Origin: Holophagales bacterium UBA5704
Lineage (GTDB): Bacteria > Acidobacteriota > Thermoanaerobaculia > Multivoradales > UBA5704
Assembly: GCA_002420005.1 (NCBI GenBank)
Contig: DIHE01000157.1
Coordinates: 18,296 to 82,295, forward strand
Direction of reading: 5' to 3'
DNA: 64,000 nt
Shown here: positions 40,098 to 53,447 of the stretch, piece after piece
Layout of the letters: each line of letters begins with the position of its first letter
Numbering within the stretch: the stretch's first letter is position 1
Position numbers and translations under genes: made by a program
The notes under the pieces: generated by a model
Told to the model about the DNA's origin: nothing
What the model saw: the letters and a program-made list of their open reading frames with translations, nothing else
Databases searched by the model: none

Positions 40098-41114
40098 ATG
40101 ATCCGTATCGCCATCCTCGGCGCGGGCCATTGGGGCCCGAACCTCATCCGCAACTTCCATACCCACCAGGCGAGCGAGGTCGTCTGGGTGATCGACCGCG
40201 ACCCCGGACGCCTGGAGCTCGCCCGCTCCCGCTACCCCGACGTGCGCGTCGGGGCCGACCCGGCGGCGGCGTTCGACGATCCCGCGGTCGATGCGGTGGT
40301 CCTCGCCACGCCGACGGTGACCCACCACCCGCTCGCCGCCGCGGCGCTGCGCGCCGGCAAGCACGTCCTGGTCGAGAAGCCTCTCGCCACCCGCACCGAG
40401 GAGGCCGAGGAGCTCTGTGCCCTCGCCGACCGGCTCGGACGCATCCTCATGGTGGGGCATGTGTTCCTGTTCAACGGCGCCGTCCGGCAGATCAAGGAAG
40501 ACCTCGACGCCGAGCGCGTCGGCAAGGTCTTCTACCTCTCCATGCTGCGCACCAACCTGGGCCCCATCCGCAGCGACGTCAACGCCGCCTGGGACCTGGC
40601 GGCGCACGACGTGGCGATCGCCAACTACTGGCTGGGCGGCCCGCCGCTCGCCGCCGCGGCCCAGGGAGGCTCCTGGATCAACCCCGGCATCGAAGATGCC
40701 GTCTTCGCCAACCTCTGGTATCCAAACGGGGTGATGGCTCACCTTCACGTCTCCTGGCTGAGCCCGCGCAAGGTGCGCGACATCACCCTCGTCGGGGAGA
40801 AAGGCATGTTGACCTTCGACGACATGAATCTGCAAGAACCGGTTCGCCACTATGACAAAGGCGTGAGCGAAAAGCGCTCGGCGGGCTTCGTGGACACCTT
40901 CGCCTTGTTCCGCACCAGCATCCGCGAAGGCGCGGTGACGATCCCCCGGGTGTCGACCGGCGAGCCGCTCAAAGCCGAGTGCGACCATTTTCTCGACTGC
41001 ATCCACCGCGGCGTCCGTCCCCTGGCCGATGGGCGCAGCGGCCTCGACGCCGTCCGCGTCCTCGCCGCCCTCGACCGTTCGCTGCACGAAGAAGGCCGCA
41101 GGGTGGACGTATGA
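40098..41114 (+). CDS. Gfo/Idh/MocA-family NAD-dependent sugar oxidoreductase
   Basis: MIRIAILGAGHWGPN...VLVEKPLA...MVGHVF; 338 aa. Confidence 0.88.
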   Translation: MIRIAILGAGHWGPNLIRNFHTHQASEVVWVIDRDPGRLELARSRYPDVRVGADPAAAFDDPAVDAVVLATPTVTHHPLAAAALRAGKHVLVEKPLATRTEEAEELCALADRLGRILMVGHVFLFNGAVRQIKEDLDAERVGKVFYLSMLRTNLGPIRSDVNAAWDLAAHDVAIANYWLGGPPLAAAAQGGSWINPGIEDAVFANLWYPNGVMAHLHVSWLSPRKVRDITLVGEKGMLTFDDMNLQEPVRHYDKGVSEKRSAGFVDTFALFRTSIREGAVTIPRVSTGEPLKAECDHFLDCIHRGVRPLADGRSGLDAVRVLAALDRSLHEEGRRVDV

Positions 41115-42223
41115 GCGCCGCCCCGGCTGCGATTCCCCTGGTCGACCTCAAGGCGCAGCACGCCGAGATCGCCGAGGAGGTGGCGCGCGGCATGGCCCGG
41201 GTGATGGACGAGACCTCGTTCATCCTCGGTCCCGCCGTCCGCGCGTTCGAAGAAGCCTTCGCCCGCTTCTGCCAGGTTCCCCACTGCATCGGTGTGGGCA
41301 ACGGCACCGACGCGCTCGAATTCATCGTCCGCGCCGCGGGCCTCGGCCCGGGCGACGAGGTGCTCGTCCCGGCCAACACCTTCATCGCCACGGCGCTCGG
41401 GGTGCTGCGGGCCGGCCCGTCACCGGTGCTGGTGGATTGCGACGCCTGGCACCTGATGGACCCGGAACGGATCGAGGCGAAGATCGGGCCGCGCACGCGG
41501 GCGATCCTGCCGGTCCACCTCTACGGCCAGCTCGCCGACATGGAGGCGATCGGCGCGCTCGCCGCGGCGCACGGCCTGCTGCTGCTGGAAGATGCGGCCC
41601 AGTGCCAGGGAGCGCGCCGCCACGGCCGCCCGGCCGGCACCTTCGGCGCCGCCGCGGCCACCAGCTTCTACCCCGGCAAGAACCTGGGAGCCTACGGCGA
41701 CGCCGGAGCCGTGCTCACCACCTCGGACGATCTCGCCGCCCGCGTTCGCAAGCTGCGCAACTGGGGCAGCGAGCAGAAGTACCACCACCCCGAGATCGGC
41801 TTCAACTCCCGGCTCGACACCCTCCAGGCCGTGGTCCTCTCCGCCAAGCTCGCCCGCCTCGACGCCTGGAATGAAGCGCGCCGCCGGGCCGCCGCGCGCT
41901 ACGACGAGCTGCTGGCGGACGTGCCCGGTGTCGAGACCCCGGGCACCCTCCCCGGCAACGAGCACGTCTGGCACCTCTACGTGGTGCGGGTCCCCCGCCG
42001 CGACGCCGTCCTGGAGCGGCTCCAGGCGGCGGGGATCGGAGCGGGCATCCATTATCCCGTGCCGCTGCACCTGCACGGCGCCCTCTCCCATCTCGGCCAC
42101 CGGCGCGGCGACTTCCCCGTCGCCGAGAAAGCCGCGGCGGAGATCCTCTCGCTCCCCATGGACCCACACCTCACCGAAGACCGGCAGGCGCGGGTGGTCG
42201 ACGCGCTGCGGAGAGCGCTATGA
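41111..42223 (+). CDS. DegT/DnrJ/EryC1/StrS-family sugar aminotransferase
   Basis: GVGNGTDALE...SFYPGKNLGAYGDAG (PLP Lys)...FNSRLDTLQA...IHYPVPLH. 4 nt overlap with the upstream gene. Confidence 0.92.
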   Translation: MSAAPAAIPLVDLKAQHAEIAEEVARGMARVMDETSFILGPAVRAFEEAFARFCQVPHCIGVGNGTDALEFIVRAAGLGPGDEVLVPANTFIATALGVLRAGPSPVLVDCDAWHLMDPERIEAKIGPRTRAILPVHLYGQLADMEAIGALAAAHGLLLLEDAAQCQGARRHGRPAGTFGAAAATSFYPGKNLGAYGDAGAVLTTSDDLAARVRKLRNWGSEQKYHHPEIGFNSRLDTLQAVVLSAKLARLDAWNEARRRAAARYDELLADVPGVETPGTLPGNEHVWHLYVVRVPRRDAVLERLQAAGIGAGIHYPVPLHLHGALSHLGHRRGDFPVAEKAAAEILSLPMDPHLTEDRQARVVDALRRAL

Positions 42224-43089
42224 GCCCGTCCGTCCTCTACATGGCCTATGGCGAGATCGGCCGCTTCTGCCTCACCGAGATGCTCGCCGCCGGCTTCGAC
42301 GTCGTCGGGGTGTTCTGCCGCGCCGCCGACCGTGCCGAGCGCGACGACATTCCGTCCGTCTACACCGCAGCCCGGCGCGCCGGGCTGCACGTCTTCGGCG
42401 CCGTCGATCCGAGCGATCCGGCGTTTCTGGAGGAGGCCCGCGGGCTCGCTCCGGACCTCCTCCTGTCGGTCCAGTACGACCGCATCCTGAAACCGCCTCT
42501 CCTCGCCATCCCACGCCACGGCGCGTACAACCTCCACTTCGGGCCGCTGCCGCGCCTGCGCGGCTGCTTCCCCACCAAGTGGGCGATCCTGGAGAACGAG
42601 CCGGGAGGCGTCGCGTTCCATTGCATCGATCCGGGGATCGACACCGGCGACGTGATCGCCCGCTCCCTCGTCGCGCTCGCTCCGGACGAGACCGACCAGA
42701 CCCTCTACGGCAAGCTCGTGGAGGCCGGCAAGGCCCTGTTCCTGCAGCAGCTCGGCTGGATGCACGCCCTCACGCCGCCGCCCGCCCTGCCGCAGGAGGA
42801 GTCCCGGGCGTCCTACCACCCCAAGCAGATCCCCTATGGGGGCATGATCGACTGGAGCCGCGACGCCGCCTGGATCGAGCGCTTCATCCGCGCCTTCACC
42901 TTCCCGCCCTACCCGGCCGCCAAGGCCCTGCTGGAGGGGCGGGAGGTGCAGATCCGCGCCCCCGTGGCCACCGGTCCCGACCTGCCCGGCCTGGCGGCGG
43001 GCGCCGCGCAGCGGCACGGCGACGGCTCGGTCACCATCCAGTGCGGCGCGGGCAGCCTGACCGTGCCGGCCGGCGGAGTCCTCGCGTGA
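42220..43089 (+). CDS. Formyltransferase-fold protein (sugar N-formyltransferase candidate)
   Basis: GAYNLHFGPLPRLRG (N-x-H...R-G formyltransferase core) and IDPGIDTGDVI (catalytic Asp), 289 aa. Translationally coupled to the aminotransferase. Confidence 0.78.
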   Translation: MSPSVLYMAYGEIGRFCLTEMLAAGFDVVGVFCRAADRAERDDIPSVYTAARRAGLHVFGAVDPSDPAFLEEARGLAPDLLLSVQYDRILKPPLLAIPRHGAYNLHFGPLPRLRGCFPTKWAILENEPGGVAFHCIDPGIDTGDVIARSLVALAPDETDQTLYGKLVEAGKALFLQQLGWMHALTPPPALPQEESRASYHPKQIPYGGMIDWSRDAAWIERFIRAFTFPPYPAAKALLEGREVQIRAPVATGPDLPGLAAGAAQRHGDGSVTIQCGAGSLTVPAGGVLA

Positions 43090-43880
43090 AAGACCTGCCA
43101 CGGGAGGAGATCCTCGCCCTGATCGACGCCGCACCGGCCCCACCGCCGGAGCAGCGGGTGCGCTACCGCGGTCTCACCCTCTGCGTGGTCATGGCCTCCT
43201 GGAACGAGGCCGGCAAGGTGGGGCCGGGAGTGGCCGCGGTGCCCCGCGACCTGGTGGACACCGTCTGCGTGGTGGACAACGGCTCGGTCGACGCCACCGC
43301 GGCGGAAGCCCGGGCGGCCGGTGCCGTGGTGATCTCCCACCCGCGCAACCTGGGGGCCGGCGGCGGCTACCGGTCGGGCTACGTCTACGGCCGCCGCAAG
43401 GGGTTCGACCTGATCGTCGAGCTGGCCGGCGACAACCAGGACGATCCGGCCGACATCCGGCACGTCGTGGACACTCTGATCGACGGCGGCTACGACTACG
43501 TCCACGGCTCGCGCTGGATGGCCGGGGGCACGCGGGTCAACATGACGGTCTCGCGCTCCTACCTCACCCGCCTCTACTCGTTCCTCTTCCGCACCTTGTT
43601 CGGCTTCCCGGCGACCGATGCCACCAACGGGTTCCGGGTGTTCAAGAGCTCGCTGCTGGATCATCCGCAGATCGATCTGTGGCAGGAGTGGCTCATCCAG
43701 TATGAGCTGGAGCCGTATTTCTTCATCCAGGTGGTGCGGCTGGGCCACCGCGTGGGCGAGGCGCCGGTGCGCAAGATCTACCACCGGGAGATGAAGAAGA
43801 ACACCAAGATGGTCCCCATCAAGAGCTGGTGGTCCATCCTGCGCCCGCTCTTCCTCCTGCGGCTGGGCCTCCGGAAGTGA
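43086..43880 (+). CDS. Glycosyltransferase family 2, polyprenyl-phosphate sugar transferase-like (DPM1/ArnC-type)
   Basis: GTG at 43086 overlaps the upstream TGA. LCVVMASWNEAGKV..VCVVDNGSVDAT..ELAGDNQDDP..TDATNGFRV. The C-terminal segment is hydrophobic. Confidence 0.78.
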   Translation: MKDLPREEILALIDAAPAPPPEQRVRYRGLTLCVVMASWNEAGKVGPGVAAVPRDLVDTVCVVDNGSVDATAAEARAAGAVVISHPRNLGAGGGYRSGYVYGRRKGFDLIVELAGDNQDDPADIRHVVDTLIDGGYDYVHGSRWMAGGTRVNMTVSRSYLTRLYSFLFRTLFGFPATDATNGFRVFKSSLLDHPQIDLWQEWLIQYELEPYFFIQVVRLGHRVGEAPVRKIYHREMKKNTKMVPIKSWWSILRPLFLLRLGLRK

Positions 43881-44033: not shown

Positions 44034-45503
44034 ATGCCCGAACCGAAACCAACCCCGGAAGGGGCCACCCTGCGATTTTTCCGCTTCGCGGAGGGGCTGG
44101 CCGAGAGCCAGCTGGGCAAACCGAACGGATTGGCGGAACAGACGATCGGCCGCCTCGAAAACGGCAAGGGACCCCTCCCGGTCGGCCGGATTGTGAAGCT
44201 GCTGTCCCCGTGGAAGGTTCCGCGCGAGGCGATCGAGACCGCCTTGCTCGCCCTCGAGATATCCCGTCCACCGGCCGATCCCGGGGCACCCACCGCGCCG
44301 ACGGCCGGCGAACGTCTGGCGCTCCAGGCGGCCGCCGTCGCAGCCGGCACGGCCTCCCTCCGGGCCACCCGCACCGTGCTGACCCGGGAGAGCCACCGCC
44401 GCCATGCCCGGCGGCACCGGCGCTGGGCGCAGAAGATCTGGGCGCGCCTCGCGCGTCTGCCGGAGAAACCCCAGGAAGCGGAGATCCAGGCGCTGCTCGG
44501 GGAGCCGAAGAGCTGGGCCTTGGCGGAACGGCTGGCCTGGGCCTCCGAGATCGCCGCGGCGGATCGCGCCAGCGAAGCCTTGCGCCTGGCTCGGCTCTCT
44601 CTGCGCGTGGTGGCGGCGAGCCCCGGGCCGGAGCTCTGGCTTCTGCGGCTGCGCGGCGCCCTGGAGCCTTTTCACGGCAACGCCCTGCGGGTCTCCGGCG
44701 ACCTGCCGGCCTCCGAAGCGTCGTTCGACCTCGCCGACGATTGCTGGAAACGCGGGGCCGGCGGTGACCCCGGCCAGCTCCTCGACGGCAGGCGGCCGCT
44801 CGACCTGAAGGCTTCTTTGCTCCGCCAGCGCGGAAGATTCGACGAAGCGATCCAGTTGCTCGACCGCGCCCTCGCCGCAAGCCCACCGAAAGCAGCGGCG
44901 CGCCTGTTGATCAAGAAGGCAGCCACCTACATTCGGGCCGGGGAGTACAAGCTGGCTCTCGAAGTTCTGGATCAAGCGGAGCCGAAGATCGACGAGTGGG
45001 GTGAGCGGCGGCTTTTGCTGGTGCATCGCTTCAGCCGCGCGAACAGCCTGTGCCACCTGGACCGTTATGCTGATGCCGAAGCATTGTTGCCATTGGTTGA
45101 CACGCTGACCGCAGAACTGGGAAATGAGCTGGACAAGCAGAGGACCCGCTGGCTACTAGGGCGAACCTGTCGGGGCCTCAACCGCTGGGTTGAAGCGCTC
45201 GCTGCGCTGAGTAAGGTGCGGGCGTATTTCCGCGACAAGCAGATCGCCTACGACTACGCCTTGGCCAGCCTGGAAGTGGCGGAGATCTACCTGGAGCAGG
45301 GCCAGACCCGGCTCGTCCAAGCGCTGGCCGAGGAGATGCTATGGCTCTTCAATGGGCAGAAGGTTCACAAAGAGGCCCTGGCGGCACTGACACTTTTCTG
45401 CCGTGCCGCCGAGGCGGACGTGCTCGAGCCGGAGTGGACCCGGCACCTGATCAAGTACCTCTACCGGGCGCAGTACAAGCCTGAGCTACGGTTCGAGCCG
45501 TGA
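44034..45503 (+). CDS. Transcriptional regulator: N-terminal XRE-like helix-turn-helix, C-terminal TPR-like helical repeats
   Basis: GGAGGA lies 6 nt upstream of the ATG. The N terminus LRFFRFAEGLAESQLGKPNGLAEQTIGRLENGKGPLPVGRIVKLL fits the XRE HTH pattern. The C-terminal ~250 aa is made of helical A/L-rich repeats (e.g. GRFDEAIQLLDRALA, GEYKLALEVLDQA, RYADAEALLPLV, WVEALAALSKV). Confidence 0.65.
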   Translation: MPEPKPTPEGATLRFFRFAEGLAESQLGKPNGLAEQTIGRLENGKGPLPVGRIVKLLSPWKVPREAIETALLALEISRPPADPGAPTAPTAGERLALQAAAVAAGTASLRATRTVLTRESHRRHARRHRRWAQKIWARLARLPEKPQEAEIQALLGEPKSWALAERLAWASEIAAADRASEALRLARLSLRVVAASPGPELWLLRLRGALEPFHGNALRVSGDLPASEASFDLADDCWKRGAGGDPGQLLDGRRPLDLKASLLRQRGRFDEAIQLLDRALAASPPKAAARLLIKKAATYIRAGEYKLALEVLDQAEPKIDEWGERRLLLVHRFSRANSLCHLDRYADAEALLPLVDTLTAELGNELDKQRTRWLLGRTCRGLNRWVEALAALSKVRAYFRDKQIAYDYALASLEVAEIYLEQGQTRLVQALAEEMLWLFNGQKVHKEALAALTLFCRAAEADVLEPEWTRHLIKYLYRAQYKPELRFEP

Positions 45504-45516
45504 AGGCAGTTGTGTC

Positions 45517-45831
45517 TTAGCCGCCGCAACGCCCACTGGGGTCCATTTCGCACCCGTTGTCGAGGGTCTCCGGGTAAGCTCTTGGCGCGCAACGCCCGCT
45601 GGGGTCAACCTCGCACCCGTTGTCGAGGGTCGCCGGAGCCTGCCGCGGCGCACAGCCGCCGTCAGGGTCAAACTCGCACCCGTTGTCGCCCCAGGCGGTG
45701 GTGAGGAAGGTCCAGAGGTCACCGAGGAAGCCCCAGGGCGCCGGGGTGGCGGGCTCGGCGGCGTGGAGGGGTGGGGCCGCGAGGAGCAGAGTGAGGACGA
45801 GGAGGCCGGTTTTCGTGAGAGGACGGACCAT
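45517..45831 (-). CDS. Small secreted peptide precursor (104 aa) with three tandem Cys-loop repeats
   Basis: ATG at 45831 with GGAG 6 nt upstream (minus strand ctGGAGcttgtcATG). Sec-type signal MVRPLTKTGLLVLTLLLAAPPLHA/AEP. Then an aromatic stretch WGFLGDLWTFLTTAWG, followed by DNGCEFDPDGGCAPRQAPATL, DNGCEVDPSGRCAPRAYPETL and DNGCEMDPSGRCGG-stop. I verified the translation codon by codon. The stop lies 13 nt from the convergent regulator stop. Confidence 0.6.
   Translation of the reverse strand: MVRPLTKTGLLVLTLLLAAPPLHAAEPATPAPWGFLGDLWTFLTTAWGDNGCEFDPDGGCAPRQAPATLDNGCEVDPSGRCAPRAYPETLDNGCEMDPSGRCGG
45520..45687 (-). repeat. 63-bp (21-codon) in-frame tandem repeat inside the peptide gene, 2.7 copies
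   Basis: Units at 45625-45687, 45562-45624 and 45520-45561 (truncated). Each encodes D-N-G-C-E-x-D-P-(D/S)-G-(G/R)-C. Confidence 0.85.
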
Positions 45832-45964
45832 GACAAGCTCCAGACGGGACGCGCTCCGCGGGAGCCTCCATGGCCGCCGGGACGCCTCCCGGCCTCCAGA
45901 TTGACAGGACCCGGCGCGGAAACCGGACGAAACGACCCCACAACGTAGGCTTTTCGAGCGGTGA

Positions 45965-46556
45965 CGGGCGGTTGGGGCAAGACCGGCAGGCGGGCTCCGC
46001 CCGAGGTCTGAGAGACTCAGACGTCGGGCGGAGTGGCCCGGATCGCGGGCGGAGAGGTCTGGACGTCGGGCGGGGGTACCCCCGCCCACGGGCGGAGTGG
46101 CCCGGATGTCGGGCGGAGGGGCTCCGCCCGCGAGCGGAGGGACCCGGACCTCGGGCGGAGGGTCCCGGATCGCGGGCGGAGGGACCCCTCCCCGCGGGCG
46201 GAGCAGCCCGGATCTCGGGCGGAGCCTCTCCGCCCGCGGGCGGAGGGACCCCGGCTCTCGGGCGGGGAGACTCGGATCGAGAGCGGGGAGGCCCGGATCG
46301 AGAGCGGGGAGGCGTGGACCGAGAGCGGAGAGGCGTGGACCGAGGGCGGAGAGGCCCGGGCCGAGAGCCGGCCGACCCGGGCCGAGACCCCGGAGGCCCC
46401 TCCCGAGAGCGGCGAGGCGCGCACCGAGAGCCGGGAGACCGGCACCGAGGGCGGAGCGGCGAGGATCGGGAGCGGGGAGGCCCGGACCTGGAGCCGGGAG
46501 GCTCGGATCGCGGGCGGATGGGCCACGGCCGAGGGCGGAGTGGCCCGGATCGAGGG
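45965..46556. repeat. Degenerate tandem array, ~28 units of 21-22 bp (core CGGGCGGAG / GAGAGCGGNGAGGCCCGGATC)
   Basis: The GCGG/GCCG anchor recurs at 46028, 46049, 46070, 46092, 46113, 46134, 46155, 46176, 46198, 46219, 46240 and 46262. From 46262 to 46535 it recurs every 21 nt exactly. Three units are 22 nt. All six frames are open across the array. Confidence 0.85.
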
Positions 46557-46584
46557 AAAGTACGACGACGGTCCCTCCCTGCCG

Positions 46585-46779
46585 TCAATCGCCCGTGCCC
46601 TCCCACCCACGGTCAGCGGTCCACCAGACCCCTTCGCCGGCACCGGGCGCAATCAGGTCCGCTGCATCGGCGGGGAGGCCTTCGGCCCAAGCGGCGAAAC
46701 CGGCGTCGGCCACCTCGAGGCTCTCCGGATGGGGCTGCCGGAGCGATTGCCGAAGCTGGTCGGTGCGGGCATTCGGCAT
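46585..46779 (-). CDS. Hypothetical small protein (64 aa); coding status uncertain
   Basis: ATG at 46779 is preceded on the minus strand by AGGAGAcggagccATG, a strong SD. It lies 52 nt downstream of the GT-A-like gene on the same strand and stops ~30 nt before the repeat array. An overlapping plus-strand frame has similar third-position GC, so this is a weak call. Confidence 0.3.
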   Translation of the reverse strand: MPNARTDQLRQSLRQPHPESLEVADAGFAAWAEGLPADAADLIAPGAGEGVWWTADRGWEGTGD

Positions 46780-46831
46780 GGCTCCGTCTCCTGACCGATC
46801 ATCCTCTGAATCCTTCTGAGTATACCTGCTT

Positions 46832-47695
46832 TCACGACCCCAGCCGCCGCTTCAGCTCGGCAGCCGCCAGGCTCCACCAGGGGCAGCCCGGCGCCGGCAC
46901 CGTCGTGAGCGCCACCGGCTCGGCTCCGGCCGCAGCGCGGGCCCACCCGGCGTAGAGCGGCAGCAGGGCACGCCGGGGGGTGACGAAATGCAGGGCGACG
47001 AGACCCTCCGGCGGCGTGAACCGCTCGCCCGGCAGCCGCACCCGGGACGGATCGACGAACCGGCAGCCGTGCCGCGCACCGAGGAGAGCCCAGGCGGTCT
47101 GCTCCACCCAGACCGGCGTCCGGTGGTACGCGGGATGCGCCAGGAACCACTCCAGCAGATCCGCGTCATACGCCGCGCGGGGAAACCCTACGATCCCGGT
47201 GTTGACGAACCCCGCGAGACGCAGGCGCGGCTCGCGCAGCACCTGCCACGAACGCACGGAGTAGGCGTGCTGGGTGTCGTGCAGGAACACCGTCTCGCCC
47301 TCGGCCCCCCACAAGCCGGAGAACGGCCGGAAGAAGAGGACGTCGGTGTCGCAGAACAGCAGGCGTTCCTCGGCACCGAGCACCGCCGCATCGACCAGCT
47401 TGAGCCCGAGCGGGTTCGTGCGCCGAAGCTCCCGCGTGGCCGGGCGGGCGGCCAGATGCTCCGCCAGACGCTCCTCGGCGTCGCCCCGCGCCACGATCTC
47501 CGGCTCCGCCAGACCCTCCGCCAACCGCGCCCGGTCCTCCCCGGTCAACGTCCCGTCGTCATGCAGCCGCAAGCGCACCGGCTCGGCCGCATGGGCCAGC
47601 AGGCTCCCCAGACAGAGCAGCGCCATGTCCACGTGAGAGTGGCCGAGGAGGGAGGTCACGACCAGCGGTGCCTGCACCCTCGGACCATACCACAT
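46832..47695 (-). CDS. GT-A-fold glycosyltransferase-like protein (GT8-like DxD)
   Basis: N-terminal strand PLVVTSLLGH, LLFCDTDVLFFRPF (DxD) and FVNTGIVGFPR. 287 aa from ATG 47695, and that ATG lies inside direct repeat R1. Confidence 0.55.
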   Translation of the reverse strand: MWYGPRVQAPLVVTSLLGHSHVDMALLCLGSLLAHAAEPVRLRLHDDGTLTGEDRARLAEGLAEPEIVARGDAEERLAEHLAARPATRELRRTNPLGLKLVDAAVLGAEERLLFCDTDVLFFRPFSGLWGAEGETVFLHDTQHAYSVRSWQVLREPRLRLAGFVNTGIVGFPRAAYDADLLEWFLAHPAYHRTPVWVEQTAWALLGARHGCRFVDPSRVRLPGERFTPPEGLVALHFVTPRRALLPLYAGWARAAAGAEPVALTTVPAPGCPWWSLAAAELKRRLGS

Positions 47696-48293: not shown

Positions 48294-48524
48294 TTGAGCC
48301 AGCTCACCCTCTACCTGGATGCAGAGACCGAGAGCCGCATGAAGGCGGCAGCCAAGGCGTCCGGCGTCTCCCTCAGCCGCTGGGTGGCGGGCCTGATCCG
48401 CGAGAAGACGGCGAACCGGTGGCCCGATTCGGTCGCGCAGCTGGCGGGCGCCTGGGCCGATTTTCCGACTGCGGAAGAGATCCGCGCCGGCCTGGGCGAG
48501 GACGCGCCGCGCGAGCCCCTCTGA
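48294..48524 (+). CDS. vapB: Ribbon-helix-helix antitoxin (VapB-type)
   Basis: 76 aa with a TTG start. LTLYLDAETESRMKAAAKASGVSLSRWVAGLIREK is a CopG/RHH pattern. The stop overlaps the ATG of the PIN toxin gene. Confidence 0.75.
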   Translation: MSQLTLYLDAETESRMKAAAKASGVSLSRWVAGLIREKTANRWPDSVAQLAGAWADFPTAEEIRAGLGEDAPREPL

Positions 48525-48916
48525 TGTATGCACTCGACACCAACATCCTGAGCTACTTCTTCAAGGGGATCGGACAGGTGGCAGAGCGCCTGCTGGCGAC
48601 GCCGCCTTCCGAGATCGCCATTCCCTCGGTCGTCCTCTTCGAGCTGGAATTCGGGCTGGAACGGTCGAGCCGCGCCGCCCAGCGGCGCGAACAGCTTCAG
48701 GAGCTGCTGTCCCTTCTGACGATTCTACCCTTCGGATCGGCAGAGGCCCGGGCGGTGGCGGTGATCCGCGCGGATCTGGAGCGCGCCGGGACCCCGATCG
48801 GCCCTTATGATCTGTTGATCGCCGGGACCGCCCTCCATCATGGAGCCGTCCTGGTCACCCACAACACGAAGGAGCTCGGGCGCGTGCGTGGGTTGAAGCT
48901 GGAAGACTGGACCTGA
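48524..48916 (+). CDS. vapC: PIN-domain toxin (VapC-type ribonuclease)
   Basis: MYALDTNILSYFFKG (first acidic residue)...FELEFG...YDLLIAGTALHHGAVLVTHNTKE; 130 aa. ATG at 48524 overlaps TGA 48522-48524. Confidence 0.88.
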   Translation: MYALDTNILSYFFKGIGQVAERLLATPPSEIAIPSVVLFELEFGLERSSRAAQRREQLQELLSLLTILPFGSAEARAVAVIRADLERAGTPIGPYDLLIAGTALHHGAVLVTHNTKELGRVRGLKLEDWT

Positions 48917-48934: not shown

Positions 48935-49954
48935 ATGGATTGGAATCAAAAGAAAGTCCTGGTCACCGGGGGCGCGTCGTTCATCAGCTCCCACCTGATC
49001 GACCTGTTGGTGGCCAAAGGGGTCCGGGACGTCCGGGTGGTCGATGACCTGACGAGCGGCAAGCTCGCCAACATCCAGGGCCACATCGACGCCGGGGTGG
49101 TCGAATTCCGCCGCGAGGACCTGCTGGCCCCGGGGGCGGCCCAGAGGGCGGTCGAGGGCGTCCACGTCGTCTTCCACCTCGCCGCCATCCACGGCGGGCG
49201 CGGCTACGTCGACCTGCACCAGGCCGCCTGCGCGCAGAACCTGGCGATGGACGGGATGCTGATCAAGGCCGCCCACGAGGCCGGCGTCGAGAAGTTCGTC
49301 TTCGCCTCCTCCGGCTGCGTCTATCCCAACTTCCTCCAGGGTGACGTGACGAAGGAGCTGTACCTCACCGAGGAGATGGTCGGGCCGCCCTACGACGCCG
49401 ACAACATGTACGGCTGGGCGAAGCTGATGACCGAGATGACGCTCCAGGCCTACCACCGGGATTTCGGGCTCAAGGCGGCCTCCTGCCGGTTCTTCACCGT
49501 GTACGGCGAGCGCGGCGTCGAGAACCATGCGGTGATCGCGATGATCGCCCGCGCCTTCGTGCGCCAGAACCCGTTCGAGGTGTGGGGGGACGGCACCCAG
49601 ATCCGCAACTGGACCTACGTCGGCGACATCGTCTCCGGCATGGTGCTCTGCGCCGAGAAGATCGACGACGGCACCGCGGTCAACCTCGGCACCGAGGAGC
49701 GCACACGGGTGATCGACGCGGTGCACGAGGTGCTGCGCTACACCGGCCAGGAGGCCGAGATCAAGCTCCTCCCGCACATGCCCACCGGGCCGCTCAACCG
49801 GGTGGCGAGCAACCGCCTGGCGCGCGAGCTCCTGGGCTGGGAGCCGCAGATGAAGTTCATCGACGGCCTGCACCGCACCATCGACTGGTACTTCGCCTCG
49901 CGGCAGCGCGAGGTGGTGAGCGGCTACCTGCAGGAGATGCTCACCGAACGGTAG
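48935..49954 (+). CDS. NAD-dependent epimerase/dehydratase (extended SDR)
   Basis: VLVTGGASFISSHLIDLL (Rossmann fold) and YGWAKLMTE (YxxxK); 339 aa. Confidence 0.88.
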   Translation: MDWNQKKVLVTGGASFISSHLIDLLVAKGVRDVRVVDDLTSGKLANIQGHIDAGVVEFRREDLLAPGAAQRAVEGVHVVFHLAAIHGGRGYVDLHQAACAQNLAMDGMLIKAAHEAGVEKFVFASSGCVYPNFLQGDVTKELYLTEEMVGPPYDADNMYGWAKLMTEMTLQAYHRDFGLKAASCRFFTVYGERGVENHAVIAMIARAFVRQNPFEVWGDGTQIRNWTYVGDIVSGMVLCAEKIDDGTAVNLGTEERTRVIDAVHEVLRYTGQEAEIKLLPHMPTGPLNRVASNRLARELLGWEPQMKFIDGLHRTIDWYFASRQREVVSGYLQEMLTER

Positions 49955-49968
49955 GTGGGCCCGCGCCG

Positions 49969-51138
49969 ATGGGTGGACCCACCGCGGCGACGGCCGGCGG
50001 CACGGAGACGACGCATTTTCCGGGGCTCGACAGCCTCCGGTTCTACGCCGCCTTCTGCGTGCTGATCGGCCACATTCCGCTCAACCAGCAGAGCCGGGGC
50101 CTGCCCGATCCGCACAGCGGCGCCATCTTCTTCCGCGGCGCTCCGGCCGTCTCCTTCTTCTTCACCCTGAGCGGCTTCCTCATCACCTGGCTCCTGCTGC
50201 GCGAGATCCGCAAGACCGGCGGCGTGCGCGTGCGCAGCTTCTACCTGCGCCGCATCTGCCGCATCTGGCCGCTCTATTTCCTCATCGTCTTCTTCGGTCT
50301 CGCCTTCTACAACGTGCTCCTGCCCCGCCTCGGCATCGCCTATCCGGTCGAGTACGGCATCCCGTTCGCCCTGCTCCTCTACACCTTCCTCCTGCCCAAC
50401 CTGATGAACAGCCTGTACACCGTGGGCGGCATCCTGAACCCGCTCTGGTCGATCGGGGTGGAGGAACAGTTCTATCTCGCCTGGGCGCCCACGGTGAAGC
50501 GGTTCCACCGCGCCCTGCCGCGGATCTGCTGGGGAATCCTCGCGGTCTCGTTGACCGTGTTCTGCCTGAGCTCCCTGGGCTTCTTCGGCCGCGCGGCGAT
50601 GCAGAAATTCACCGGCCAGCTGGAGGTGCACTTCATGGCTGCGGGAGCGCTCGCCGCCTGGGCGCTCTTCCACCACCGCGAGCGGCTGCTCGCCCTGCCC
50701 GTCTTCGCCCACCGGGCGGTCCAGGTCCTCCTCGCGGCCCTGCTCCTCGACTACTACTTCACCACCTTCATCCGCTGGGGCTGGTTCGGCACCGAGATCG
50801 TCCAGCTCGTCCTCTACACCTGGCTCATCGTCAACGTCGCCGCCAACCCGCAGAACGTGCTGCCGGTCGAGAACCGGGTCACCGACTACCTGGGCACGAT
50901 CTCCTACGGCTTCTACATGGTCCATATGATCGCGGTGTACGCCACCTCGTACGCCTTCCTGCGCTGGCGCTGGTGGGAAGGCGGGTCGCTCGCGGTCTAC
51001 GTCCTCGCCTACTACGGCCTGGCGATCGGCCTCACGGTCGCGCTCGCCTCCGCCTCGTACTTCTTGTTCGAGAAGCCGTTCCTGCGCCTCAAGGACCGCC
51101 GCTTCACCGTCGTCGCGAGCGCGCCGGGGGCCGGGTGA
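49969..51138 (+). CDS. Acyltransferase family 3 membrane protein (O-acyltransferase)
   Basis: Internal ATG at 49969. FPGLDSLRFYAAFCVLIGH...FFFTLSGFLIT...RRICRIWPLYF, and multiple TM segments. Confidence 0.85.
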   Translation: MGGPTAATAGGTETTHFPGLDSLRFYAAFCVLIGHIPLNQQSRGLPDPHSGAIFFRGAPAVSFFFTLSGFLITWLLLREIRKTGGVRVRSFYLRRICRIWPLYFLIVFFGLAFYNVLLPRLGIAYPVEYGIPFALLLYTFLLPNLMNSLYTVGGILNPLWSIGVEEQFYLAWAPTVKRFHRALPRICWGILAVSLTVFCLSSLGFFGRAAMQKFTGQLEVHFMAAGALAAWALFHHRERLLALPVFAHRAVQVLLAALLLDYYFTTFIRWGWFGTEIVQLVLYTWLIVNVAANPQNVLPVENRVTDYLGTISYGFYMVHMIAVYATSYAFLRWRWWEGGSLAVYVLAYYGLAIGLTVALASASYFLFEKPFLRLKDRRFTVVASAPGAG

Positions 51139-52244
51139 GATCGCTCGTCTACCTGTGCGACTGGCTGCCGCCGGACTTCGGCGCCGTCGGCCAATACAGC
51201 CTCCTGTTCGCCCGCGAACGGGCCGCGGCGGGCGAGGACGTCGTGCTCGCCGGCCTCTCCTCCACCGCCGGCTCGATCGCCGAGGAAGCGGTCGGAAGCG
51301 GCCGGCTGCGCATCGTCCGCCTGCAGGCGCCGGTCTATGACAAGGCGGACTTCCGGCGCCGGGCCTGGTGGACGCTGCGCACCAACGGCGCCCTCCTCCT
51401 CGCCCTGCGCCGCGAGATCCGCCGCGCCGACGAGGTGCTGTTCACCGGCAGCCCGCCGTTTCTCATCCATCTGCTCGCGCCGCTCAATCTCCTGCTGCGC
51501 CGGCGCCTGACCTACCGGATCACCGATTTCCACCCCGAGTGCCTGATGGCGGAGCTGGAGCGGGTTCCGCTGCCCCTGCGCCTTTTCCACCGCTGGACCG
51601 TCTTCCTGCGCCGCCGGATCGACCGCTTCGAGGTGCTCGGGGAGGACCAGCGGGAGCGCCTCCTTGCCCTCGGCATCGAAGCCGGGCGGATCGTCCTCAA
51701 GCGCGATCCCTCGCCGGTCGCGATTCCGGCGGGCACCGAGCCCTTGCCGGTCCCCGAGGAGCTCGCCGGCCGCACCGTCCTCCTCTACTCCGGCAACTTC
51801 GGCGTCGCCCACGACCATGAGACCTTCGTCGAAGGCTACCGGCGCCACCACCGGGAAGGCTCCGGCCGCGTCGGGCTGTGGCTCAACGCCACCGGCGCCA
51901 AGGCCGACCGGGTGGAAGAGATCCTGCGGAGGGAGAACCTGCCGGTGCACCGCAGCCGGCCGGTCCCCCTGGAGCTGCTGCCGCGCCTGCTGGTGACTCC
52001 GCACGCCCACCTGATCACGCTGCGCGACGCCTTCGTCGGCTACGTGCTGCCGTCCAAGGTGCATGGCTGCATCCAGTCCGGCCGCACCGTCCTCTACGTG
52101 GGGAGCGACCGCTCCGACGTCCACCTTCTGTGCCGCCAGGGGCTCCCGCCCGGCCGCTACCACCGTGCCGCGGTGGGCGATCCGGCGGCGGTGGCCACGG
52201 CCCTGGAGGCTCTGGGGGCTTGCGCTTCGCCCGGTTTCGGCTAA
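51135..52244 (+). CDS. Glycosyltransferase (GT4, WcaI-like)
   Basis: GTG at 51135 overlaps the upstream TGA. VYLCDWLPPDFGAVGQYS...LLYSGNFGVAHD...VLPSKVHGCIQSGRTVLYVG. Confidence 0.7.
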   Translation: MRSLVYLCDWLPPDFGAVGQYSLLFARERAAAGEDVVLAGLSSTAGSIAEEAVGSGRLRIVRLQAPVYDKADFRRRAWWTLRTNGALLLALRREIRRADEVLFTGSPPFLIHLLAPLNLLLRRRLTYRITDFHPECLMAELERVPLPLRLFHRWTVFLRRRIDRFEVLGEDQRERLLALGIEAGRIVLKRDPSPVAIPAGTEPLPVPEELAGRTVLLYSGNFGVAHDHETFVEGYRRHHREGSGRVGLWLNATGAKADRVEEILRRENLPVHRSRPVPLELLPRLLVTPHAHLITLRDAFVGYVLPSKVHGCIQSGRTVLYVGSDRSDVHLLCRQGLPPGRYHRAAVGDPAAVATALEALGACASPGFG

Positions 52245-52259
52245 CATACACACAAGTCG

Positions 52260-53447
52260 ATGAACCACATCCTGTTGTATGCCCTGGGCGCGGCCGTGGT
52301 CGCGGCCTTGCTGACCAGCCTGCTGGTGCCGCCGGTCACCCGTCTGGCCATCGCTCTGCGGGCGCTCGACCATCCGGACGCCCGCAAGCTGCAAGAGACC
52401 GCCGTGCCCCGGCTGGGCGGCGTGGCCATCTCGGTGGGCCTCGCCTTGGGCGCCGGCATCGCGGGGGTTTCCCGCTGGGGGCAGTGGGATACGCTCCAGC
52501 GCGGCGAGATGCTGGTGCTCGTCCTGGCGACCGGCCTCGTCTTTCTCGTCGGTGTCGCCGACGACCTGACCGGCGTCTCGGTGGCCAAGAAGTTTCTCTG
52601 CCAGATTCTCGCCGCCTGGCTGCTCATCGAAATGGGCTGGTCGTTCGAGGTCCTGCGGCTGCCGCTGGTGGGCGAGATCCAGCTCGGCTGGCTCGGCCCG
52701 GCGCTGTCACTGGTCTGGATCGTCGGAGTCACCAACGCGGTCAATCTGATCGACGGCCTCGACGGCCTGGCGAGCGGCATCGTGGCGATCATCGCGACCA
52801 GCGTGCTCGCCTATTCCGTCGTCCAGGGCAACGCGGGCACCGTCCTGTTGATGGCCGCGACCGCCGGCTCCTGCCTCGGCTTCCTGCGCCACAACTGGCA
52901 GCCGGCGAAGATCTTCATGGGGGACTCCGGCTCGCTGACCCTGGGGTTTCTGCTGGCGGCGGCCACCGTCCACTCGTCGCTCAAGGCGCCCGCGGCGGTG
53001 GCGATCCTGGTGCCCCTCCTGGCGCTCGGCCTGCCGGTCATCGACACCCTGCTGGTGATGACCGTGCGTTTCCTCGACCGCCCGCACAGTCCGCTCGGCG
53101 AGCGCTTCCTGCGCATGTTCCACGCCGACCGGCAGCACCTGCACCACCTGCTCGCCCATTTCGGCGGCGGGAGCAAGCCGACCGTCAAGGTTCTCTACCT
53201 GGTGGCGGTCAGCTTCTGCGCCATGGCGCTGCTGGTGGCCTTCACCGGGGAAACGGCCCTGGGGGTCGCCCTCGTGGTCCTGGAGTTCGCCGTCGTCTTC
53301 ACCATGCGCCGCCTGGGGATGTCCCGCTCCGCCCAGAACCTGGTTGCGACACAGCGTGAAGGACTGCGGGCCGGGGCTCGCAGCGACGGCGACGGCGAGC
53401 CGCCGGCCGACGAGCGCAACGTGCTGCCGTTCATCCGCCGCCCGTAG
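52260..53447 (+). CDS. Polyprenyl-phosphate N-acetylhexosamine-1-phosphate transferase (MraY/WecA family)
   Basis: PRLGGVAI...VGVADD...VTNAVNLIDGLDGLASG...FMGDSGSLTLGF, and about 10-11 TM segments. Confidence 0.9.
   Translation: MNHILLYALGAAVVAALLTSLLVPPVTRLAIALRALDHPDARKLQETAVPRLGGVAISVGLALGAGIAGVSRWGQWDTLQRGEMLVLVLATGLVFLVGVADDLTGVSVAKKFLCQILAAWLLIEMGWSFEVLRLPLVGEIQLGWLGPALSLVWIVGVTNAVNLIDGLDGLASGIVAIIATSVLAYSVVQGNAGTVLLMAATAGSCLGFLRHNWQPAKIFMGDSGSLTLGFLLAAATVHSSLKAPAAVAILVPLLALGLPVIDTLLVMTVRFLDRPHSPLGERFLRMFHADRQHLHHLLAHFGGGSKPTVKVLYLVAVSFCAMALLVAFTGETALGVALVVLEFAVVFTMRRLGMSRSAQNLVATQREGLRAGARSDGDGEPPADERNVLPFIRRP

Follow-up and report, generated by a model that had tools for sequence, protein, structure and literature searches.

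One of the questions raised by a 64,000-nucleotide stretch of the genome of Holophagales bacterium UBA5704 (Acidobacteriota; Thermoanaerobaculia; GenBank assembly GCA_002420005.1, contig DIHE01000157.1, positions 18,296 to 82,295), referred to here as the window, concerns a 104-amino-acid protein that is encoded at 45517-45831 on the (-) strand. What is the role of a small, apparently exported protein that is composed largely of near-identical cysteine-bracketed units, and why does its gene stand end to end with that of a regulator in which a helix-turn-helix (HTH) is joined to tetratricopeptide repeats (TPR)? The answer favoured here, with a confidence that goes only a little beyond an even chance, is that the gene encodes an exported multi-unit signal precursor that is sensed by the neighbouring TPR regulators, following a logic like that of the RRNPP peptide-receptor systems.

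The repeat peptide and its family

The gene, P0001, starts at an ATG (45829-45831) that is preceded by a GGAG 6 nt upstream, closes with a stop codon at 45517-45519 and has a G+C content at third codon positions (GC3) of 0.82. Its translation is MVRPLTKTGLLVLTLLLAAPPLHAAEPATPAPWGFLGDLWTFLTTAWG DNGCEFDPDGGCAPRQAPATL DNGCEVDPSGRCAPRAYPETL DNGCEMDPSGRCGG-stop. A longer, GTG-started open reading frame (ORF) at 45517-46089, taken from a mechanical ORF list, was set aside as the homologs give it no support. The protein is organised, in order, as a Sec-type signal peptide, an aromatic amphipathic helix and three DNGCExDPxGxC units, with the C-terminus lying two residues past the last cysteine. The predicted signal peptide (residues 1-24/25; 45760-45831, as with all parts of the gene on the (-) strand) has an n-region with R3 and K7, an h-region GLLVLTLLLAAPPL within a segment whose hydrophobic core spans 14 residues, and a c-region in which cleavage would fall between LHA and AEP; this layout is common to the family, with A24 nearly invariant. 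The amphipathic stretch, W33-W47 (WGFLGDLWTFLTTAW; 45691-45735), follows a W/L-x2-L-x3-W-x2-L-T pattern that is found family-wide, and its W40 is conserved at a level of at least 90% in an alignment of 33 homologs. The final 56 codons of the gene, precisely 45520-45687, spell the three units: D49-L69, which is DNGCEFDPDGGC plus the spacer APRQAPATL (45625-45687), D70-L90, which is DNGCEVDPSGRC plus the spacer APRAYPETL (45562-45624), and the C-terminal D91-G104, which is DNGCEMDPSGRC plus GG (45520-45561). The spacers between units are Pro-rich and 9 residues long, and in the DNA Tandem Repeats Finder detects a repeat at 45525-45688 with a period of 63 bp, 2.6 copies and 80% matches. An original prediction, made by a model from the letters alone, had described three tandem units in 63-bp repeats behind a signal peptide and an aromatic stretch, and in this it was correct in every detail.

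Is such a pattern more than a chance run of codons? It is: in each unit the N, G, C, D, P and G do not change in any of the 33 aligned homologs, a profile of the family matches 1552 metagenome clusters at E<=1e-3 (680 at E<=1e-10) out of 1.84 billion representatives, and the gene is under purifying selection, with a ratio of non-synonymous to synonymous substitution rates (dN/dS) of 0.40 against its 85%-identical in-genome paralog C51. A word-indexed search returned 57 homologs, and the best 150 profile matches listed are nearly all 77-170 amino acids in length, with three longer. Diversifying selection within the loops was considered and rejected, given that the two closest paralogs yield a dN/dS of 0.27 across the repeats, which is again purifying.

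Members of the family carry from 2 to 6 units, so that the variation in copy number which had been proposed as a check is indeed found, and throughout the family the last unit forms the protein end. Exactly 2 residues follow the last cysteine in 64 of 74 members, and exactly four residues separate the last DPxG from the end in 146 of 201. Within the loop the C-x7-C ring is present in 172 of 201 units, and across those 201 units position +1 is mostly E, +2 hydrophobic, +5 S/N/D and +7 R/G. Units within one precursor resemble each other more than units of different paralogs do (0.48 vs 0.33 over seven variable positions), a value that was reached by none of 2000 label shuffles.

The family is also unevenly distributed. 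In the window's own GTDB family all five genomes sampled hold 8-21 copies each, three genomes of other families in the order hold 1-4 each, and the remainder of the 201 class genomes give a single weak match in seven cases and none in the rest. An even draw across the phylum matched in 2 of 301 genomes, namely the window's own and one more from the same family, and the source names on homologs are Thermoanaerobaculia. The peptide family is therefore real and lineage-restricted, confined to one family within the class, and the window copy is one of about 20 per genome. Three near-identical cassettes, with peptides that read GCYIDPYGGC, sit at contig ends (C11:34170-34662, C62:22239-22731 and C183:2-676), which indicates that recent duplicates break the assembly and that the true copy number may be higher.

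The motif had been said not to belong to any described family, and this holds: neither single-sequence nor profile searches place the peptide in a family of Pfam, NCBIfam or PHROGs, in PADLOC or among PDB sequences. The nearest approach is to DUF6799 (PF20606), whose function is not known and which gives weak, sub-threshold matches over two consecutive units in 20 of 33 members; the best member scores 24.1 bits and P0001 11.8 bits against a gathering score of 26.8 that no member reaches. A six-frame search of the own genome finds no DUF6799, a weak negative as the named control genomes are silent too.

If the protein is not a signal, what else might it be? It could be a regulated effector, an intact disulfide-stapled mini-protein of some 80 residues in the periplasm or at the surface that binds Ca2+ or another metal, or is structural or antimicrobial, with the flanking HTH-TPR proteins controlling its transcription and sensing something else. 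The 3-4 acidic or amide side chains in the 12 residues of each unit would suit such a protein, as would the conservation of the amphipathic helix, an even number of cysteines and an AlphaFold2 (AF2) model, based on the family alignment, with helices at 4-18 and 33-48 followed by three hairpins. The confidence of that model is, however, low (predicted local distance difference test, pLDDT, 59 overall and about 70 for helix 33-48), too uncertain to serve a fold search. Nor do EF-hand, thrombospondin type 3 (TSP3), Excalibur or other metal-binding models match the family: P0001 has no match at E<=1, and EF-hand_9 attains only E 0.024, far under its cut-off, in 2 of 33 members. Like those Ca2+-binding loops, which include the Excalibur DxDxDGxxCE, the units are short, predicted to be secreted and rich in Asp, Asn and Gly, some of the known loops also being flanked by cysteine, but the acidic spacing of D-N-G-C-E-x-D-P-x-G departs from D-x-D/N-x-D-G, and Cys-free relatives of the peptide, described below, retain only the hydrophobic-D-P-x-G part. 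The suggestion that these are Ca2+-binding loops thus gains nothing from the models.

The cysteines themselves point, indirectly, to a disulfide in each unit. Their number after the signal peptide is even in 187 of 201 members (93%), and the own genome encodes two VKOR homologs above cut-off. No DsbB was found in the own genome; VKOR can replace DsbB. The disulfide loops that had been foreseen are in this way supported at one remove. A different use of the same residues is imagined if the protein is a multi-core precursor of a ribosomally synthesised and post-translationally modified peptide (RiPP), in which maturases from another part of the genome would cross-link the C-x-x-D or N-G-C units, for instance through a Cys-Asp thioether of the ranthipeptide type, before the units were excised. 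A row of near-identical cores in which Cys and Asp never vary, and many paralogous precursors per genome, are what such a pathway would lead one to expect. Yet the N-terminus has the n-, h- and c-regions of a classical Sec signal with a site of the signal peptidase I type and not those of a leader, no gene for a radical-SAM enzyme, YcaO, lanthionine synthetase, peptidase or ABC exporter lies beside the window locus or beside three metagenome loci of the same kind (L009, L011 and L013), and the Cys-free relatives keep the DPxG motif. A RiPP is for these reasons highly improbable. The idea of a multi-core precursor, as originally put, consequently divides in two: the pheromone-like half fits best, given 2-6 units, a terminal last unit and pairing with a TPR regulator, and the RiPP half is left unsupported by the Sec signal and the lack of a maturase, protease or exporter gene nearby.

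The convergent regulator

Fundamental to any explanation of the peptide is the gene that it faces, which, like the roughly 20-fold paralogy of the pair, played no part in the original prediction. A 489-amino-acid protein, the proposed receptor, is encoded at 44034-45503 on the (+) strand, and the two convergent stop codons are divided by a gap of 13 nt (45504-45516) in which there is no terminator-like hairpin. The two transcripts probably overlap, and antisense interference between them is possible; a scan for sigma-70 promoters and terminators around the gene pair gave nothing useful. The arrangement is near-obligate. In the own genome, which is 8 Mb in size and was searched by tblastn and by a hidden Markov model (HMM) from 44 regulator homologs, 74 ORFs match the regulator profile and all 15 strong peptide paralogs are convergent with a full-length HTH-TPR gene at a stop-to-stop distance of 3-62 bp; these figures for adjacency were taken from the HMM and tblastn coordinates, the gene calls at paralog loci being crude. 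A second, divergent regulator paralog lies upstream of the peptide in 10 of the 15 pairs. Three other genomes of the same family have a convergent regulator at 33 of 37 peptide matches and the divergent one as well at 26. In the three metagenome loci mentioned above, which come from a metagenome-assembled genome and from metagenome contigs, the order is regulator (-), peptide (+), regulator (-) amid unrelated neighbours, and the constancy of this layout in changing surroundings argues that the cassette is self-contained. In several cassettes of other genomes the divergent regulator is short, at about 270 amino acids, and comprises the HTH and the first 250 or so profile positions without the C-terminal TPR half (for example L011:4039-4860, G041:C10:17668-18435 and G153:C101:93437-94201).

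The two partners have also diverged together. Peptide and regulator identities co-vary with a Mantel r of 0.84 (p<0.001, 13 pairs), rising to 0.89 in the comparison with the divergent regulator (8 triples), and the regulators, as with the peptide, are under purifying selection.

Upstream of the peptide gene is a conserved region of about 130 nt (45832-45960, (-)), which holds the GGAG at 45838-45841 and a 12-nt inverted repeat at 45871-45898, and which in an alignment with the C51 paralog is near-identical across its last 95 nt or so. It may be an operator or a hairpin in the 5'-untranslated region. Such a region would also sit well with the peptide being a regulated effector, as local regulators often adjoin their targets.

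The window copy has no upstream regulator, and in its place is a tandem array. This array (46025-46556) contains about 25 copies of a degenerate, CGGGCGGAGRGGCCCGGAYCG-like 21-bp unit; this length corresponds to 7 codons, and an ORF at 46033-46794 on the (+) strand would give SGEARIE-like heptads. Arrays of this type, about 500 bp long and of 74-83% identity, are repeated in at least 10 further places in the own genome, one of them (C100:195044-195553) directly adjoining another peptide/regulator cassette.

What kind of protein is the regulator? Its layout is that of an XRE-type HTH at about residues 8-77 and a TPR-like superhelix at about 130-480, with matches to Pfam TPR_12, TPR_19 and TPR_2, and to the HTH model TIGR03070 at residues 10-58 (E 0.0018); homologs carry PF01381 (HTH_3) and PF13560. 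It has no transmembrane segment and no signal peptide, and across seven regulators the hydropathy in a 19-residue window has a maximum of at most 1.65. The lack of anything resembling a membrane span indicates that the protein is cytoplasmic, and the same hydropathy values rule out a membrane-anchored regulator with a periplasmic TPR domain, an arrangement that was considered. The AF2 model (pLDDT 91; predicted template-modelling score, pTM, 0.80) begins with five short helices at the N-terminus, which a long connector helix joins to about nine helical hairpins. When compared with the PDB by Foldseek its top match is LGN/Pins (E 2e-6), and further matches include RapJ-PhrC (4gyo, TM-score 0.62), domain III of MalT, the PlcR-PapR7-DNA complex (3u3w), RapI and phi3T Rap with its pheromone, so that the modelled fold fits a peptide-binding sensor without singling out the RRNPP receptors. 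A phmmer search of the PDB with the regulator returned only designed TPRs, MamA and STI1. Across 51 regulator paralogs of both the XRE and non-XRE types the only polar residues that are well conserved are N216, R219, S261 and W373, which makes these four the candidate contacts for the invariant D-P-x-G; the N-x-x-R pair among them could hold the peptide backbone and the invariant Asp.

Sister cassettes, a proposed mechanism and the genomic surroundings

Further insight into the partnership comes from regulator-family ORFs with no detected Cys-loop peptide. Beside many of these are small ORFs of the same design that are mostly Cys-free, with a signal peptide, an amphipathic W/L helix and 2-3 hydrophobic-D-P-x-G repeats at the protein end, as in QGLWIDPNGGDSTTADQGLWIDPDG-stop, SSFIDPNG..SSFIDPLGNP-stop, GFVRDPDGG..GFVRDPNG-stop and GLWIDPNG...GLWIDPDG-stop. 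Across the whole genome, 35 small signal-peptide-like ORFs contain two or more DP.G motifs; 24 of them are no more than 700 bp from a regulator-family domain, a proximity that applies to only 2.2% of the genome. Nine of the remaining 11 are just upstream, on the same strand, of proteins of 425-520 amino acids, six of which have a clear H-x3-C-x2-C N-terminus and three a weak match (54-66) to the regulator profile. Among the stronger non-XRE proteins of the regulator family H-x3-C-x2-C can be seen by eye in 6 of 7 N-termini, the other having Q for H. A relationship to zf-HC2 (PF13490) reaches only E 0.17-0.8 on these partners, where the cut-off is 22.2 bits, and an identity as ZAS-type anti-sigma factors is not established.

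Individual loci of this type in the own genome are found at C155:7654-9342, C125:31034-32875, C177:50104-51820, C25:11737-13563 and C114:24046-25761, where peptides such as GWDPWG, GHFDPNG-stop, GLWIDPDG-stop and SSFIDPLGNP-stop stand directly upstream, on the same strand, of H-x3-C-x2-C plus TPR proteins of 430-520 amino acids. At C158:16420-22910 three tandem pairs of peptide and TPR protein follow one another on one strand, interspersed with a further, fourth ORF for a small peptide, and here the peptides have single Cys-bracketed units, for example GSCIDPMGGGC and GSCIDPLGGC.

The sister cassettes, for which the literature offers no description, share with that of the window a C-terminal TPR region which is homologous to that of the window regulator and retains the N-x-x-R motif, and differ from it in having no Cys bracket, in placing the peptide upstream on the same strand and in the zinc-finger-like head of the partner. 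That Cys-free peptides occur beside homologous TPR proteins implies that DPxG is the conserved core and the Cys bracket a subfamily feature. What stays constant is thus the TPR region together with the DPxG peptide; the order of the genes changes, and so does the output head, which is either an XRE-HTH or zinc-finger-like. A pattern of this sort is predicted for a ligand and its sensor, and not for a regulator and its target. Were the peptide a regulated effector, the pairing of DPxG peptides with TPR proteins whose H-x3-C-x2-C head is not DNA-binding, in another gene order, would be left unexplained, as would the existence of about 35 pairs per genome and of Cys-free members that end exactly at DPxG. 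An effector role is on balance unlikely, if well short of negligible.

If peptide signalling is what the cassette performs, the following course may be proposed. The pre-protein would be exported via Sec with removal of its signal peptide, and in an oxidising envelope each G-C-x-x-D-P-x-G-x-C unit would be closed by its disulfide into a loop of 9 residues about a D-P-x-G turn, with the units possibly being freed by proteolysis in the Pro-rich spacers. Re-import would be assisted by Opp-type binding proteins, and two SBP_bac_5 proteins of the Opp/Dpp peptide-binding type are encoded in the own genome. Once inside, the hydrophobic-D-P-x-G motif would act as the ligand for the adjacent XRE-HTH regulator in the cytoplasm, in the groove of its TPR domain; in most cassettes a second, divergent regulator paralog is present as well. 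Binding would switch the interaction of the regulator with DNA, probably including autoregulation of the cassette. Each precursor would provide several copies of the signal, in keeping with the logic of PlcR-PapR, NprR-NprX and Rap-Phr.

A number of points weigh against this course of events. The host is a diderm, such that a loop of 1-2 kDa would need to pass the outer membrane twice, and in the cytoplasm it would be reduced. A folded mini-protein could equally well have the conserved amphipathic helix and a mature size of 75-80 amino acids. The regulator belongs to no RRNPP-specific sequence family, with only generic TPR families being found in Pfam and NCBIfam, and its best structural matches are likewise generic TPR scaffolds such as LGN and not RRNPP receptors specifically. 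A few members have units without closing cysteines (P0024, P0026 and P0031), from which it follows that the staple is not essential. Finally, co-duplication alone would give the same Mantel co-divergence, which is not counted as proof of binding.

The difficulty of the outer membrane would be sidestepped, along with that of re-import, by a secretion-coupled partner switch, in which the TPR protein binds the unexported precursor, as in the TPR chaperone/co-activator pairs of type III secretion systems, and export frees the regulator with no signalling between cells. A cytoplasmic TPR protein, an exported partner and tight genetic coupling of the two are all in accord with this. It is hard, though, to justify dozens of diverged paralog pairs per genome for one shared Sec pathway, Sec substrates normally leave quickly, and neither the repeated units nor their conserved C-terminal placement would be needed. 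Such a switch is improbable, and the exported signal is preferred to it.

As for the wider surroundings, the gene neighbourhood in the window includes a DegT aminotransferase, a formyltransferase, glycosyltransferases of the GT2 and GT4 families, an epimerase, and a gene for a PIN toxin that is preceded by a small partner. The sugar-modification or polysaccharide cluster lies on the (+) strand in two parts, at 40979-43877 and 48935-53444, and contains the DegT-family aminotransferase, formyltransferase, GT2, NAD-epimerase and GT4 genes. Between these two parts lie the peptide/regulator cassette, the repeat array, a 287-amino-acid ORF with no Pfam match (46835-47695, (-)) and the PIN toxin pair. 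The latter, at 48294-48913 (+), is a likely toxin-antitoxin pair in which a DUF6364-like ORF of 76 amino acids (24.8 bits against a cut-off of 27.3) overlaps the PIN-domain gene.

Relation to known peptide-receptor systems

The usual view of Gram-negative bacteria is that they depend on autoinducers that are small molecules, and the Acidobacteriota are abundant but hardly cultured. Signals that consist of a genetically encoded peptide and are sensed by cytoplasmic TPR receptors count as a speciality of the Bacillota and their phages (PMC9765709, PMC10075063). Full-text literature searches found no description of peptide signalling in Acidobacteriota, of RRNPP-like systems in Acidobacteriota or other diderms, or of the DPxG motif. 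The boldest form of the present proposal is of a large, independently evolved, RRNPP-like pheromone network in one diderm family of Thermoanaerobaculia, in which disulfide-cyclised DPxG loops, several per Sec-exported precursor, are each read by their own pair of XRE-HTH/TPR receptors, with about 20 Cys-type and about 15 Cys-free cassettes per genome; it is put forward tentatively, with doubt outweighing belief.

What would follow from it? The disulfide could shield the signal from extracellular proteases, and its reduction once the signal had re-entered the cell could open it, such that redox state gates recognition; the two sets of cassettes would provide a combinatorial code for kin or population. 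With dozens of diverged copies per genome and hundreds to thousands of metagenome clusters, the cassette would represent a major layer of regulation that has escaped annotation, and it would be a source of orthogonal peptide/receptor pairs, to which the Cys-bracketed version would add a natural design for a disulfide-cyclised, multi-copy signal. Should the signalling interpretation fail, there is still a large class of exported mini-proteins, lineage-specific and without annotation, whose linkage to regulators is unusually strict.

How close, then, is the cassette to the systems that are already known? As with the RRNPP(A) pairs (PlcR-PapR, NprR-NprX, Rap-Phr, Rgg-SHP, PrgX-PrgQ and AimR-AimP), a small gene for a pro-peptide, Sec-exported in those systems and predicted to be so here, adjoins that for a cytoplasmic receptor of the XRE-HTH plus TPR type. 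The C-terminal active unit of those systems may be likened to the terminal last unit found here, their Opp import to the Opp-type binding proteins of the own genome, and the many diverged paralogous cassettes per genome of Rap-Phr to those of the present family, and the modelled fold of the regulator is similar to RapJ, RapI, phi3T Rap and PlcR. In prgQ/prgX the peptide and receptor genes are, moreover, convergently transcribed. C-terminal pheromones and pseudorepeated or tandem propeptides have been described within RRNPPA (PMC9765709, PMC11343458). The comparison is especially close with the tandem Phr pro-peptides of Bacillus phages (Phr-phi3T and Phr-phi105), where several near-identical units, which differ slightly in sequence (PMC11343458), are likewise held in one exported precursor beside a TPR receptor. 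The Phr units are, however, linear 5-7-mers without cysteines, their processing by extracellular proteases has been shown, and their Rap receptors have no HTH.

Other differences set the cassette apart from the whole group. RRNPPA has been described for Bacillota only (PMC9765709, PMC10075063), whereas the present host is a diderm of the Acidobacteriota (Thermoanaerobaculia). There is no sequence homology to the Rap, Rgg, NprR, PlcR, PrgX or AimR families. The peptide is larger, with its amphipathic helix and 2-6 Cys-bracketed DPxG loops, two receptor paralogs usually flank a single peptide gene on the opposite strand, and the sister cassettes employ an H-x3-C-x2-C head in place of the HTH. 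By analogy, the balance tips slightly towards a cassette that works like an RRNPP system without being a member of that group.

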